Shown piece after piece: positions 2,929-55,148 of a stretch of DNA of 64,000 bases. This stretch comes from a virus. Lineage: Duplodnaviria; Caudoviricetes. The stretch is from the IMG/VR virus record IMGVR_UViG_3300012007_000013, positions 1 through 64,000 of that record; one strand, written 5' to 3'. Within the stretch, counting starts at the first letter, position 1. Each line of letters begins with the position of its first letter. The notes under the pieces are model-generated. The model ran no database searches. It saw nothing but the letters and a program-made list of their open reading frames with translations, and was not told where the DNA came from. A program made the translations under genes and the position numbers.

Positions 2929-3155
2929 TTCTCGGAGTCTGCTTGTTTGTATATTTAATCGGTGTGGGCGCGTCGGCAATGGCTATGGCGGACAACCTTA
3001 TCGACTTGAATCCGCTGACATTTTTTGTCGCGTTTTGCCCTGTGCTTCACTGGGTCGTCGTCGTCAAATTTTTTCGCAGGAGCGTCCGTAAAGGAGTTTT
3101 TCGCGAATGGATTAACGAATACAAAAAGATATGGAAGAAGGAGGACTGCAAATGA
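2925..3155 (+). CDS. Small membrane protein
   Basis: Two hydrophobic segments followed by a basic tail. Confidence 0.6.
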   Translation: MILGVCLFVYLIGVGASAMAMADNLIDLNPLTFFVAFCPVLHWVVVVKFFRRSVRKGVFREWINEYKKIWKKEDCK

Positions 3156-3643
3156 CTATAAAGAACTGGATTGAGCAGTTGTCTCGTTCGGGCATGGTGT
3201 GTCCGGACTATATGCGTAAACTCTCCGCCGTGGAGACGAAGGAGGACATGTTCCGTGTTCTGTGCGACGCCAACGGCGGTCAGTGGATTTTCGACATTCA
3301 CTCCAAAGGTATTCCGCTGCCTGTTGATAACTTCTGCAAGGAGTTTGCGAACTATTTGAACGGGACGCGCATCGTTGAGTACCCGCAGGGATACACGTCG
3401 AAGTTCTACTGCCGCAGCACTGAGCCGGACATCGACGCGGACACGACGCTTGTCTATCTGCTCGAGTGCATGGACATGGAGGTCTACGTCCCGAAGAACA
3501 AATACCCGAGCGTCATTCTTTCGGACGGCAGTCAGGCGGATGTCGTGCTTGGAGAAGGGGCGCGTGCCAACATAGAGTTGTACGGCGACGCCCGCGTGAA
3601 CCTTGTGGGAGACACTACAAAATGCAGGATAACGAAACATTAA
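3152..3643 (+). CDS. Hypothetical phage protein
   Basis: ATGA-coupled start; beta-rich C-terminus. Confidence 0.65.
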   Translation: MTIKNWIEQLSRSGMVCPDYMRKLSAVETKEDMFRVLCDANGGQWIFDIHSKGIPLPVDNFCKEFANYLNGTRIVEYPQGYTSKFYCRSTEPDIDADTTLVYLLECMDMEVYVPKNKYPSVILSDGSQADVVLGEGARANIELYGDARVNLVGDTTKCRITKH

Positions 3644-5552: not shown

Positions 5553-5813
5553 ATGAAAAAGAGACAAAGAAAGAAATTCGCGTCAATGGACGCAAGCGGC
5601 GTGAAAGAGATTGCTTCCATGCAGAATCGTATCGACGACTTGGAGAACGCCTTGTGGAGACTGGCGATGATGACCGAGGGGAAAGACGATTGTCGTTCGC
5701 TTGTCAAGTTTACAGACGTAGGAAGTATTGTTGAGGTGGCTATGGAGAAGTTGTACGACTTTATAAAAAAGCATACAGATGATGCCAAAGACTCTCAACG
5801 CGATAACGCATGA
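5553..5813 (+). CDS. Hypothetical protein
   Basis: ORF in the same operon. Confidence 0.55.
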   Translation: MKKRQRKKFASMDASGVKEIASMQNRIDDLENALWRLAMMTEGKDDCRSLVKFTDVGSIVEVAMEKLYDFIKKHTDDAKDSQRDNA

Positions 5814-6144
5814 CGACTACCTCCGAGCCGAGGGTGCGCGGATGATGCTCGCAGCGTTGCAGGACTTTATCCGCAAATGGCGAGCCTCAGACGGTAATGG
5901 GAAGCCGTCGCCGGACAAAATCTCCGTAGAAGGCGAGGAATACCCGTTCTGTTATGTGGCGGGCATATCCACCGACATGATGGTTGATGGCGTGCGGAGG
6001 CTTACGGCAAGCACTTTCAACTGTGTGGACTTCATCTACGGGCAGTTTCCGGAGTATGCGTCTTTTAAGGGACACAAGGCAAAAACAAAGACAGGATATA
6101 AAATCGACAATATAGACTTCCATTACAGAAAGGAAAAACAATGA
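5779..6144 (+). CDS. Hypothetical protein
   Basis: Overlapping ORF in the operon. Confidence 0.55.
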   Translation: MMPKTLNAITHDDYLRAEGARMMLAALQDFIRKWRASDGNGKPSPDKISVEGEEYPFCYVAGISTDMMVDGVRRLTASTFNCVDFIYGQFPEYASFKGHKAKTKTGYKIDNIDFHYRKEKQ

Positions 6145-6542
6145 CTGAAAAACAAGAAGACATATGGATAGTAGACCCGTCGCAGTTCGAGGACAAATGC
6201 GTCTGCATAAGGTCAAAGACGGCGTATGTGTATATGTACCCGTTCTGTGCCGAGGTCGCAAAGACAGGTGCGAAGACGGTTACAAGGACTGGGCGCACGG
6301 TAAAGAATGTGCAGGTCAACGGAAAGGGTGCAAACGCTGTCGTGACAGGTGAACTTGACGGTGAGAGACTCACGTGGGACGCAGCAGGGCGGTACAAGGG
6401 TCCATACGTCGATGACGACAGAAACCTTTACCACTATGAAAGATATTTCTACAAGGACTGGAAGACGCACTTCGGCATGTCGAACGCGGAATGGGCTGTC
6501 AGATACGGTCGCCAACATCCTAAAGTTAAAATCCCAGAGTAA
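6141..6542 (+). CDS. Hypothetical protein
   Basis: ATGA-coupled; LTWDAAGRY motif. Confidence 0.6.
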   Translation: MTEKQEDIWIVDPSQFEDKCVCIRSKTAYVYMYPFCAEVAKTGAKTVTRTGRTVKNVQVNGKGANAVVTGELDGERLTWDAAGRYKGPYVDDDRNLYHYERYFYKDWKTHFGMSNAEWAVRYGRQHPKVKIPE

Positions 6543-53307: not shown

Positions 53308-53790
53308 TTAATTGGTTTTTATTTCAATCTTCTTGAGTATTCTCTTGTACCACGGGAGGGCGTTGAATCGCTCTATCTCTTTGTGTTCTGTATCTCTTTG
53401 GTCATAAGCATCGTCTAACTGCTTGTTTAATTTTTTGATTTCATCGTTGAGTTTTTCAATTTTGCCATCTTTGTGACTGATTTCAGACAGAAGCCCTGCC
53501 TGTTCAGCATTTGGGTTTATTATACACCCAATGCTTTCAGTAAGGCATTCTTTTTCTCCCGTAATTGCATCAATCACTACTTTACACTTCTCGCGTGAAA
53601 TAAATGCCGGAATATTTTTTAATTGTGAGATAATAATCCCCATCGTCTTTGCGTTGCAAGTGAAGTTGCCGTACATCTTAACGTACTGCTCACCGTCAAC
53701 CCAAACACCTTTGTTGCTTTCAACAACAAGTTTGCCGTCATCGTTGAAGTAGAAGTACTGCGGGCGCTGTTCTTGTTTTTTTTCTTCCAT
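53308..53790 (-). CDS. Hypothetical protein with a C-terminal coiled coil
   Basis: Ends ...ALPWYKRI. Confidence 0.6.
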   Translation of the reverse strand: MEEKKQEQRPQYFYFNDDGKLVVESNKGVWVDGEQYVKMYGNFTCNAKTMGIIISQLKNIPAFISREKCKVVIDAITGEKECLTESIGCIINPNAEQAGLLSEISHKDGKIEKLNDEIKKLNKQLDDAYDQRDTEHKEIERFNALPWYKRILKKIEIKTN

Positions 53791-53815
53791 TTCGATATGT
53801 TTTTAGTTTGTCTTG

Positions 53816-53898
53816 TGCCACAGGCCGGACTCGAACCGACATCGGACGCGGGGCGTCATTTTACCAACTGACCAATAGGGTCATTAAACTACGGTGGC
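53816..53898 (-). ncRNA. tRNA-like element with aberrant anticodon arm and D-loop
   Basis: Acceptor GCCACCG/CTGTGGC-A; T-arm GTCGG-TTCGAGT-CCGGC; D-stem GTTT/AAAA; anticodon arm GACGC-CCC-GCGTC. Confidence 0.7.
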
Positions 53899-53936
53899 AA
53901 CCATCCCACGTTTCACACTGGAGACGAGATTATACT

Positions 53937-54269
53937 TTACTTGGATTTGAATATCGAGAAAATCCACTGAAGGAAATCCCATATCTCGTTGCGGTCATAA
54001 ATCTTGTTTGCAGCGAGACCGCATCCAAGACCGATGAGAACGGTCTTCACCCAGCCCTGCCAAGTGTCGATAGCACCACAGTCGGCGAAAAAGCCGAGTT
54101 GGAGGGCAAAGCCGATACAAGCAAGGGCGATTGAAAATACCCACGAAAGGATGAGTTTTGTCCGAGAGTTCTCGACCTTGAATAGGCGGAACAGTGCCTC
54201 ATTGATGGTAATGACACCACCCACAAATGCTACGAACGTAGCGAACATTGTCATTAAAGTCGTTGCCAT
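53937..54269 (-). CDS. Holin-like multi-pass membrane protein
   Basis: Three hydrophobic segments, GLGCGLAANKIYD; about 110 aa. Confidence 0.5.
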   Translation of the reverse strand: MATTLMTMFATFVAFVGGVITINEALFRLFKVENSRTKLILSWVFSIALACIGFALQLGFFADCGAIDTWQGWVKTVLIGLGCGLAANKIYDRNEIWDFLQWIFSIFKSK

Positions 54270-54296: not shown

Positions 54297-55148
54297 TTAC
54301 TTGTCGAACATTTCTGTCTGAGCCTTACCGTCGTTCTGCACAACCTCTCCTGTCTGCTCGTCCACGACCTCCGCCTCTTGGAAGTCCTGCGGCTCCGTCT
54401 CGACAGGCATTTCTCCGCCGTTGTCAACGTAGTGGACTTGAGGATTGTCCATATCTCCAGAGAGGGCGGCTTGGTCACGCTCGATAGCCATCTGCATTTC
54501 GAGCGACTTTGGTAAATACTTGGTAATCAGATGTTTAAGCACAGATTTGAGCGCCATGCTATTAAAGTCATCTTTCCAAAGGCCGTAGCCCCGCTTGAAT
54601 GTTTGCGAGAAACGGAGTCCGTGCTGTTTGCACTTCTCAACGTCCCAAAAGACGTATTTTTCAAAACCGTTGGAAAGTTTTGCGTAGGCGAGGTAGCCGA
54701 TAATCTTGTCAGACTTGCGTTTTGTTTCGTCGAACACGTACTCATCGGTGAAACGGTTGTGTGACACAAGTTCGCCCTCATAGACAATCTCGTTTGCGAG
54801 GCGGACAACCTGACCGCTACGTTGAGCGAGTTCTACCCACCCCGAGCGCATAATTTGGCAAGTCGCTGTGCACGAGCCGGTTTTATTGTCTTTGAACGGG
54901 ATTATTGCTGCATAGCCGAGGTTAGGATTGATAGGCAAATCCAAGGCAGCGGCGGTTGCTGCGGCAAGAATGATAGAGTTGACGTCTGCTTTTTTGAGCA
55001 GGTCGTTGTTGCTCACCACATTGGTGATAGAGGTGATAAATCCGGGAGCACGTTTCCCGAGCATATCGGAAAATCTCTTTGCCACCGACTCGCTTGAAAG
55101 GGCGACTTTCAAGTCTTTTGCGTTGTTGTACTGTGCTACTTCGCTCAT
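54297..55148 (-). CDS. recT: RecT/Red-beta-family recombinase
   Basis: AAALDLPINPNLGYAAIIPF; GWVELAQRSG; FNSMALKSVLK. Confidence 0.9.
   Translation of the reverse strand: MSEVAQYNNAKDLKVALSSESVAKRFSDMLGKRAPGFITSITNVVSNNDLLKKADVNSIILAAATAAALDLPINPNLGYAAIIPFKDNKTGSCTATCQIMRSGWVELAQRSGQVVRLANEIVYEGELVSHNRFTDEYVFDETKRKSDKIIGYLAYAKLSNGFEKYVFWDVEKCKQHGLRFSQTFKRGYGLWKDDFNSMALKSVLKHLITKYLPKSLEMQMAIERDQAALSGDMDNPQVHYVDNGGEMPVETEPQDFQEAEVVDEQTGEVVQNDGKAQTEMFDK

Follow-up and report, generated by a model that had tools for sequence, protein, structure and literature searches.

A tRNA-shaped RNA with a capped stub in place of its anticodon arm in phage early gene blocks: a possible module for transcript processing

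INTRODUCTION

What could maintain a tRNA-shaped RNA in a phage genome if it has no loop with which to read a codon? The question is raised by an 83-nt tRNA-like RNA gene at positions 53816-53898 (minus strand) of the window, i.e. the whole stretch of 64,000 nt that was analysed, which covers the initial 64 kb of a phage record in IMG/VR (84,434 bp; estimated completeness 99%). The gene starts with position 1 of the acceptor stem and ends with the discriminator base, and it is the sole tRNA-like sequence found with the Rfam tRNA model in the whole 84-kb genome. A sequence-only reading had taken it for a tRNA mimic that does not decode, and had offered as explanations a decoy for anticodon nucleases or tRNA-sensing defences, an RNase P/Z processing signal, or a remodelled tRNA-Gly(CCC).

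How phage tRNA genes counter defences that cleave tRNAs is being studied actively, and the described cases are all working decoders. The element analysed here offers a clean and, with 12 clearly co-varying variants, comparatively well-sampled case of a tRNA body that is selected after decoding has been lost, and the small size and simplicity of its family make direct bench tests feasible.

RESULTS

A tRNA-like fold that standard annotation would miss

The transcription of 53816-53898 (minus strand) given in the sequence-only reading is exact. The architecture which it described, a tRNA-like acceptor stem, D-stem and T-arm combined with a stub of 5 bp and 3 nt and a hairpin in the D-loop, was found again in the Rfam alignment and in the minimum-free-energy (MFE) fold, where the acceptor stem, the D-loop hairpin, the stub and the T-arm are formed. 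The folding energy on its own is unexceptional (z about -1 to -1.8). The parts of the RNA are as follows, from 5′ to 3′, with pairing given as the fraction of paired cells in the alignment of variants described below.

53899..53904, minus strand: 6-nt leader with U at -1; its last five bases are near-invariant in the 12 variants
53892..53898, minus strand: 5′ strand of the acceptor stem, pairing with 53817-53823, with one C-U mismatch at 6:67
53886..53889, minus strand: 5′ strand of the D-stem, pairing with 53858-53861; 100% of cells paired
53869..53883, minus strand: extra D-loop hairpin of 5 bp with a 5-nt loop, between A14-A15 and G18-G19
53862..53868, minus strand: remaining D-loop, containing G18-G19 and A21; the GG is invariant in all variants
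53845..53857, minus strand: stub replacing the anticodon arm, a 5-bp stem with the 3-nt loop CCC at 53850-53852
53841..53844, minus strand: four bases at the variable-loop position, ending in A-U; the last two are constant and the first two vary
53824..53840, minus strand: T-arm, a 5-bp stem with a canonical 7-nt T-loop; 98% of cells paired
53816..53823, minus strand: 3′ strand of the acceptor stem and the discriminator A (53816)
53813..53815, minus strand: 3′ trailer CAA; no CCA is encoded

The bases for tertiary contacts are all present, namely U8, A14, A15 with U48, G18-G19, A21 and the canonical T-loop. A15 and U48 could form a Levitt pair and, going by established tRNA structure, G18-G19 would form the elbow with the T-loop. 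The acceptor mismatch at 6:67 is found in the window copy, and the relatives have G-U or A-U at this position. The trailer CAA follows the discriminator in most variants and likewise follows neighbouring phage tRNAs in two related loci (L004 and L005).

In both local and genome-wide searches, the Rfam tRNA model RF00005 matched the element end to end (model positions 1-71) with a marginal 29.3 bits against a gathering score of 29 (E 1.5e-5 for the whole 84-kb genome), and relatives of the element scored 32-33 bits. The alignment to RF00005 places ~20 extra bases in the D-loop and leaves three bases in the anticodon arm where nine are expected. ARAGORN called nothing, neither in the window nor at the sites of the homologs, and a default Rfam scan of the whole window at the gathering threshold came back empty. 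Standard annotation would hence miss the element, and such elements are probably under-counted in phage genomes. Models for YrlA/Y RNA (RF02553), tmRNA (RF00023) and the SpF41 sRNA (RF02435) gave no match either in 53600-54100 at E up to 10 or in the whole window at gathering scores. Alanine charging of the tmRNA type requires a G3:U70 pair; the element has C3-G70 instead.

The first three bases of the conserved leader are ATG, replaced by GTG in two variants and by CTG in one. This ATG is in frame with a TAA in the D-loop and gives a 6-codon mini-ORF (53884-53904, minus strand) that runs through the 5′ acceptor strand and the D-stem, which may be due to chance or may link translation to folding of the RNA.

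Position in the early gene block

The element lies in the early (recombination/replication) gene block, within a long run of minus-strand genes and on the same strand as both neighbours, 38 nt past the stop codon of one ORF and 25 nt before the ATG of the next. No terminator-like site was found near the element at the window locus. The genes concerned are the following.

54297..55148, minus strand: RecT recombinase gene (PF03837, E 4e-40), which served as the anchor for finding related loci
53937..54269, minus strand: upstream ORF of 110 aa, which follows RecT and precedes the tRNA-like element
53308..53790, minus strand: downstream ORF of 160 aa, whose ATG stands 25 nt after the tRNA-like RNA

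Neither of the flanking ORFs belongs to a known RNA-binding or tRNA-related family. The 110-aa ORF has no Pfam or PHROG match and may encode a small membrane protein, as read from its hydrophobic stretches and not from a tool. In a separate 171-kb phage contig (L012), a 71%-identical homolog of this ORF (3001-3318) is situated amid an array of nine tRNA genes, and the same contig contains a weak tmRNA-like match (5692-6293, 45.5 bits, below threshold).

The phage uses the standard genetic code. No phage-encoded CCA-adding enzyme was found in the genome, and no tyrosine or serine recombinase is present in this 99%-complete genome. Across the whole genome, a Shine-Dalgarno-like core precedes 12 of the 91 long ORFs, leaders are A-rich, and the Bacteroidota -7 promoter motif occurs 103 times against ~68 in shuffled sequences. 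The scarcity of Shine-Dalgarno (SD) cores, the A-rich leaders and the excess of the -7 motif together suggest a host of Bacteroidota type.

A sigma-70-like promoter match stands just upstream of the element in the window; it is not conserved in L003, a related locus described below, and the host probably does not follow the sigma-70 consensus. Two short conserved noncoding motifs, with variable spacing, are located ~20-60 nt upstream of the site of the RNA in L003, L124, L125 and L146-L149, and also before a plain hairpin that takes this site in L141/L144. The first motif starts directly after the stop codon of the upstream ORF and the second stands ~12-30 nt before the RNA; the window has the second only, at 53930-53940. 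Both motifs match neither the sigma-70 nor the Bacteroidota promoter consensus.

Twelve variants keep every helix by compensatory change

Phage GenBank records contained no similar DNA, a RecT search of reference genomes found nothing, and exact-pattern scans of IMG/VR returned the contig of L003 only, plus one chance match in L011. A T-arm pattern gave 21 loci in IMG/VR, every one an unrelated ordinary tRNA. Homologs were recovered by other routes: a RecT-anchored search of IMG/VR led to L003, where RecT is 96% identical and a homologous element is present; a gapped DNA pattern in JGI metagenomes led to two contigs and to the third variant, L017; and a RecT protein search followed by examination of the encoding contigs raised the number of distinct variants, all from related phage contigs, to 12, one of them truncated by the contig end. 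A covariance model built from the first three variants gave 108 bits for the window element and 77-112 bits for full-length members, compared with a maximum of 41 bits for ordinary tRNAs at 60 other phage loci, and this gap in score sharply delimits the family.

Between the window and L003 the element is nearly identical from 6 nt before position 1 through the discriminator, and the DNA on either side cannot be aligned. In the 12-row alignment, 95.6% of the cells at paired positions hold a standard pair, and 9 of the 26 pairs change on both sides, with compensation in all five helices. The covariation score was 0.309 against 0.117 after shuffling, and none of 500 shuffles reached 0.309; when the 3′ partners were moved by 1-3 columns as a slide control, only 28-45% of cells were paired. 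Individually, the variants fold into these helices, save for a weak A/U D-stem in many of them and a rearranged MFE fold in L149.

Compensation is distributed over the whole molecule. Three of the seven acceptor pairs change on both sides (G-C/U-G/U-A, C-G/G-C, A-U/U-A), pair 10:25 of the D-stem is G-U, A-U or G-C depending on the variant, and pair 51:63 of the T-stem is C-G, U-A or G-C. The stub has 5 bp and 3 nt in all 12 variants with 100% of cells paired, and its first and last pairs co-vary (G-C/A-U and C-G/U-A). The D-loop hairpin is likewise present in 12 of 12, with a constant U-A closing pair, at least six different stem sequences as judged by eye and three compensatory pairs in the alignment; it ranges from 3 to 5 bp with loops of 4-7 nt, and an expansion of ~44 nt is found in L148. 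Its pairing of 89.7% is an underestimate, because this hairpin is shifted in register for L003, L125 and L149 in both the MAFFT and the covariance-model alignment. The compensatory changes in the stub and the D-loop hairpin bear out the claim that both oddities are base-paired.

Fixed in all variants are the geometry of the stub, the U-A-closed D-loop hairpin, G18-G19 and the last two bases before the T-stem, and the T-loop is fixed but for one A/G difference at its sixth base. U at -1 is found in 9 of the 12 variants, with C in L124/L123, L125 and L147, and most variants lack an encoded CCA. The features that are free to vary are the loop triplet of the stub, the sequence, loop and length of the D-loop hairpin, the discriminator (A in nine variants, G in L123, L124 and L147) and pair 1:72 (G-C, U-G or U-A).

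Two explanations would need no function for the RNA itself. The first, a decaying functionless relic of a phage tRNA gene, draws on the borderline Rfam score, the absence of an ARAGORN call and the acceptor mismatch of the window copy. Random decay from a canonical tRNA was the outcome which the earlier reading named as refuting its interpretation, and it is contradicted by conservation of the helices: the 12 variants keep the odd features and all helices by compensation while the flanks have diverged beyond alignment, and substitutions are found in loops or preserve pairing. With helices co-varying inside flanking intergenic DNA that cannot be aligned, the element, judged by its alignment, is an RNA under selection and not a decaying tRNA; we consider the relic highly improbable.

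The second is that the element is an attP copy of a host tRNA gene at which the phage integrates. Phage attP sites often hold pieces of tRNA genes, and these comprise only the 3′ part of the tRNA. An exact 3′ 22-mer of the element also occurs in a tRNA-Phe(GAA) from the bacterial group Armatimonadota, which speaks for an attP copy, and this match is at the same time a weak hint that such a tRNA-Phe may have been the parent. Against integration, the genome has neither type of recombinase, and both strands of every helix, instead of the 3′ part only, are kept and co-vary, which leaves an attP copy with scarcely any probability.

Decoding and amino-acid identity have been lost

None of the 12 variants has a 5-bp stem with a 7-nt anticodon loop and U33; instead, the counterparts of 33 and 37 pair with each other and co-vary accordingly. 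The 3-nt loops hold seven different triplets, CCC, UUA, UCA, CUA, UUC, CUC and UGA. This loop geometry, the co-variation of 33 with 37 and the free triplet exclude a decoding tRNA, and the proposal that the element does not decode holds in 12 of 12 variants. An unusual decoding tRNA, either tRNA-Gly(CCC) or a suppressor with the stub opened to a 3-bp stem and a 7-nt loop, could find some encouragement in several variants, where the 7-nt reading puts U33 and A37 around UUA, UCA or CUA, the three nonsense anticodons. The other variants have CCC, UUC, CUC or UGA; the would-be 33:37 pair is U-A or C-G, so that U33 is not kept; a 3-bp anticodon stem is too short to reach the decoding centre; and the phage code is standard. 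The probability of this explanation is close to nil, and the remodelled tRNA-Gly(CCC) of the sequence-only reading fails in particular since CCC is confined to the window copy. A suppressor tRNA family had been suggested by UUA, UCA and CUA in the first variants, and was ruled out by UUC, CUC and UGA together with the standard code. We also rejected an arrangement in which the D-loop hairpin would be the true anticodon arm and the stub a long variable arm: G18-G19 follows the hairpin, and its loops of 4-7 nt have no conserved triplet.

Taken over the alignment, the universal features of tRNA are kept and those for codon and amino-acid identity are missing or drifting. With no anticodon loop for such enzymes to bind or cleave, the RNA is unlikely to be a decoy for anticodon nucleases as first stated; enzymes that recognise the tRNA body or the acceptor end could still be the target of a decoy.

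Charging could in principle outlive decoding if a synthetase did not depend on the anticodon. In such a case the element would be a chargeable non-decoding tRNA, with LeuRS as the candidate synthetase, and would serve as an amino-acid donor or as a synthetase sink. Identity for bacterial LeuRS consists of A73 and the tertiary core (U8-A14, G18-U55 and G19-C56, in Escherichia coli also A15-U48), deletion of the whole anticodon arm costs only a 2.5-fold loss of affinity, and an A73G change cuts leucylation 143-fold (PMC2377443). The window copy does possess A73, U8, A14, A15, U48 and G18-G19. Three variants, however, have discriminator G and a different 1:72 pair, a long variable arm is missing, the large D-loop insert shifts the spacing before G18-G19 that matters for LeuRS, and no enzyme that uses aminoacyl-tRNA was found adjoining the element. 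We regard charging by LeuRS as very unlikely.

The slot downstream of RecT is an RNA-gene island

The element occupies a slot after RecT and the small ORF, and the occupant of this slot differs between relatives:

L137-L140: a normal tRNA-Gln(UUG)
L005: tRNA-Ser(UGA), with an RNA of HEARO type further on
L004: two other aberrant tRNA-likes
L141, L143, L144 and L145 (RecT 95-96% identical): a plain hairpin of 13 bp, capped by a GAAA loop, which begins and ends exactly where the element does

What surrounds the slot differs as well. In L017 the 110-aa ORF is missing, so that RecT immediately precedes the tRNA-like RNA, and an unrelated ORF takes the place of the 160-aa ORF; in L003 the 160-aa ORF is 92% identical and lies 435 nt further from the element. 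A start codon follows the element by 18-39 nt in the window, L133, L017, L124, L146, L148 and L149, a normal tRNA-Glu follows it in L147, and in L003 and L125 it is followed by a GC-rich structured RNA of ~430 nt. Clustering of phage tRNAs with large structured RNAs is known (bioRxiv 10.1101/2024.12.08.627333). From its varied RNA occupants and from what follows the element, the slot is an RNA-gene island.

Several of these neighbouring RNAs deserve description in their own right. The GC-rich noncoding stretch (L003:5338-5772, L125:2706-3330, L141:2541-2900, L143:1541-1900, L144:2776-3190) has conserved blocks and compensatory hairpins, follows either the element (L003, L125) or the plain hairpin (L141-L145), and is absent from the window. 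It contains no ORF, matches no Rfam family, has a short motif in common with HEARO RNA, and is a candidate for a new large structured phage RNA. The plain hairpin, perfect over ~13 bp (L141:2508-2540, L143:1508-1540, L144:2743-2775), has motifs on both flanks in common with the loci of the element.

The two tandem tRNA-likes of L004 (5317-5421 and 5444-5524; RecT 79%) score 46 and 57 bits, well over the Rfam threshold. One has ~40 nt at the place of the anticodon loop; in the other this loop is 13 nt long and folds into an extended arm. The pair is not homologous to the window element beyond general tRNA features. In L005, the match to HEARO (IscB/IsrB omega-RNA type; 5935-6159, 69 bits, E 7e-12, below the gathering score of 83) lies ~750 nt past the tRNA-Ser of the slot. 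In a more distant phage, an intergenic 59-nt tRNA-like RNA (L052:4310-4368, 38.8 bits), which is without anticodon or variable arm and has a D-arm like that of tRNA-Leu, is located ~1 kb after RecT and 30 nt before a start codon.

DISCUSSION

RNase P, RNase Z and the CCA-adding enzyme accept any tRNA, and for these enzymes the stack of acceptor stem on T-stem and the elbow suffice. Set against the features of the element that are fixed and those that are free, the RNase P/Z processing signal is the option of the sequence-only reading that fits best. The explanation that we prefer, and to which we give about an even chance of being right, is that the element is a tRNA-shaped module which would be cut from an early transcript by RNase P and RNase Z and would thereby punctuate it; transcription, the two cleavages and punctuation as the selected function are what we infer here. 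The module would be derived from a tRNA whose decoding was lost and would retain what general tRNA enzymes need, i.e. a 7-bp acceptor stem stacked on a 5-bp T-stem, the T-loop, G18-G19, U8/A14 and a D-stem that a short capped helix keeps in position. It would most likely be co-transcribed with its same-strand neighbours in the early block. Its 5′ end would then be made by host RNase P and its 3′ end by RNase Z, cutting behind the discriminator since no CCA is encoded. These cuts would release a small RNA, leave the upstream message with a structured 3′ end, and define the 5′ end of the downstream RNA, which begins with a gene start in most variants, with a large structured RNA in two and with a tRNA in one.

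Several lines of evidence point to the processing module. The structure is under selection, and the element is a conserved island in which generic tRNA features are kept and identity features are not. The element lies between same-strand genes and near downstream starts, its slot is a site for RNA genes, and the t-elements discussed below offer a precedent. Moreover, U at -1 and the lack of an encoded CCA fit the established knowledge of substrates of RNase P and RNase Z. Two observations count against it, besides the sigma-70-like promoter match noted above. That the stub, the D-stem and a D-loop hairpin found in every variant are all selected is more than a bare cutting signal would need; selection that reaches beyond the acceptor/T half fits an RNA whose whole body matters. 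In addition, the module persists where the genes on either side differ, which counts against punctuation and would also fit a free-standing gene product. The extra selection could be read in two ways. An intact core may be needed for a true elbow, with the stub propping the D-stem and the D-loop hairpin being a tolerated expansion that cannot be cleanly deleted; or the released RNA itself may matter, as a decoy or a cofactor.

The latter reading leads to a trans-acting RNA, which we consider possible rather than probable: after the same processing and CCA addition, a stable small RNA would bind a host or phage protein that reads the tRNA body or the acceptor end, such as a tRNA-directed defence enzyme, and the stub and D-loop hairpin would keep it out of translation. 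Selection on the whole body, including the stub and D-stem beyond the acceptor/T half, speaks for such an RNA, as do the persistence of the module while both neighbours change and the fact that the slot otherwise holds RNA gene products (tRNA genes, a large structured RNA). Phage tRNAs are known as counter-measures to tRNA-cleaving defences (PMC10264068, PMC11464382, PMC11555353); these, however, work by decoding in place of the cleaved host tRNAs and are not decoys. A partner protein is not evident, the flanking ORFs being without known RNA-binding or tRNA-related family. Non-conservation of pair 1:72 and of the discriminator makes a target that reads a specific tRNA unlikely, and close relatives with RecT 95-96% identical have the plain hairpin in place of the module.

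A more specific form, which we hold to be on the unlikely side, is a purpose-built decoy, in which acceptor end, elbow and core would be kept for defence enzymes that read the tRNA body or acceptor end and in which the stub and D-loop hairpin would repel synthetases, EF-Tu and the ribosome. Such a decoy could soak up defence enzymes early in infection while leaving translation undisturbed, and a decoy of either form would be a new kind of anti-defence RNA. The processing module and the decoy would have the processing step in common and would differ in what is selected afterwards.

Comparison with known systems

No such phage RNA family was found in Rfam, and the literature searched describes no phage tRNA-like RNA with a capped stub for the anticodon arm and an expansion hairpin in the D-loop. 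Functionally, the closest systems to the phage element appear to be mascRNA and the t-elements of plant mitochondria. mascRNA is a small tRNA-like RNA that RNase P and RNase Z release from the MALAT1 transcript, after which it receives CCA. It resembles the phage element in being cloverleaf-like with a poorly conserved, non-decoding anticodon loop; it differs in being eukaryotic and nuclear and in having no D-loop insertion, and there is no sequence relationship between the two.

Other RNAs resemble the element in single aspects. The module of YrlA/bacterial Y RNA (RF02553), which is found in some phages, likewise mimics a tRNA body without decoding, but its ends lie on the anticodon side, where they form the Ro60-binding helix, and its acceptor end is closed, whereas the ends of the phage element lie at the acceptor stem. 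tRNA-Other, a pseudo-tRNA of Bacillus cereus (PMC3399842), is tRNA-like and non-translational and yet has a phenotype; in contrast to the element it is chromosomal with an anticodon arm of normal length, and it is unrelated in sequence and context. The decoding phage tRNAs that counter tRNA-cleaving defence (PMC10264068, PMC11464382, PMC11555353) are also phage-encoded and tRNA-derived, but they have normal 7-nt anticodon loops and act by decoding, and the element has no anticodon loop.

Plant mitochondrial t-elements are tRNA-like, mark the ends of mRNAs and are regarded as signals at which RNase P and/or RNase Z would cut (Forner et al. 2007, PMC1920247). Like the phage element, t-elements have a tRNA-like, non-decoding fold with acceptor stem and T-arm, and they stand in longer transcripts beside mRNA ends (PMC1920247), as the element would in its presumed transcript. 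They differ in being organellar and in consisting mostly of the acceptor/T half, whereas the phage element has a full core, with D-stem, elbow contacts and capped stub, and in addition a hairpin in the D-loop. If the element is indeed a cutting signal, phages of SD-poor and probably Bacteroidota hosts would shape their early transcripts by tRNA punctuation, as organelles do.
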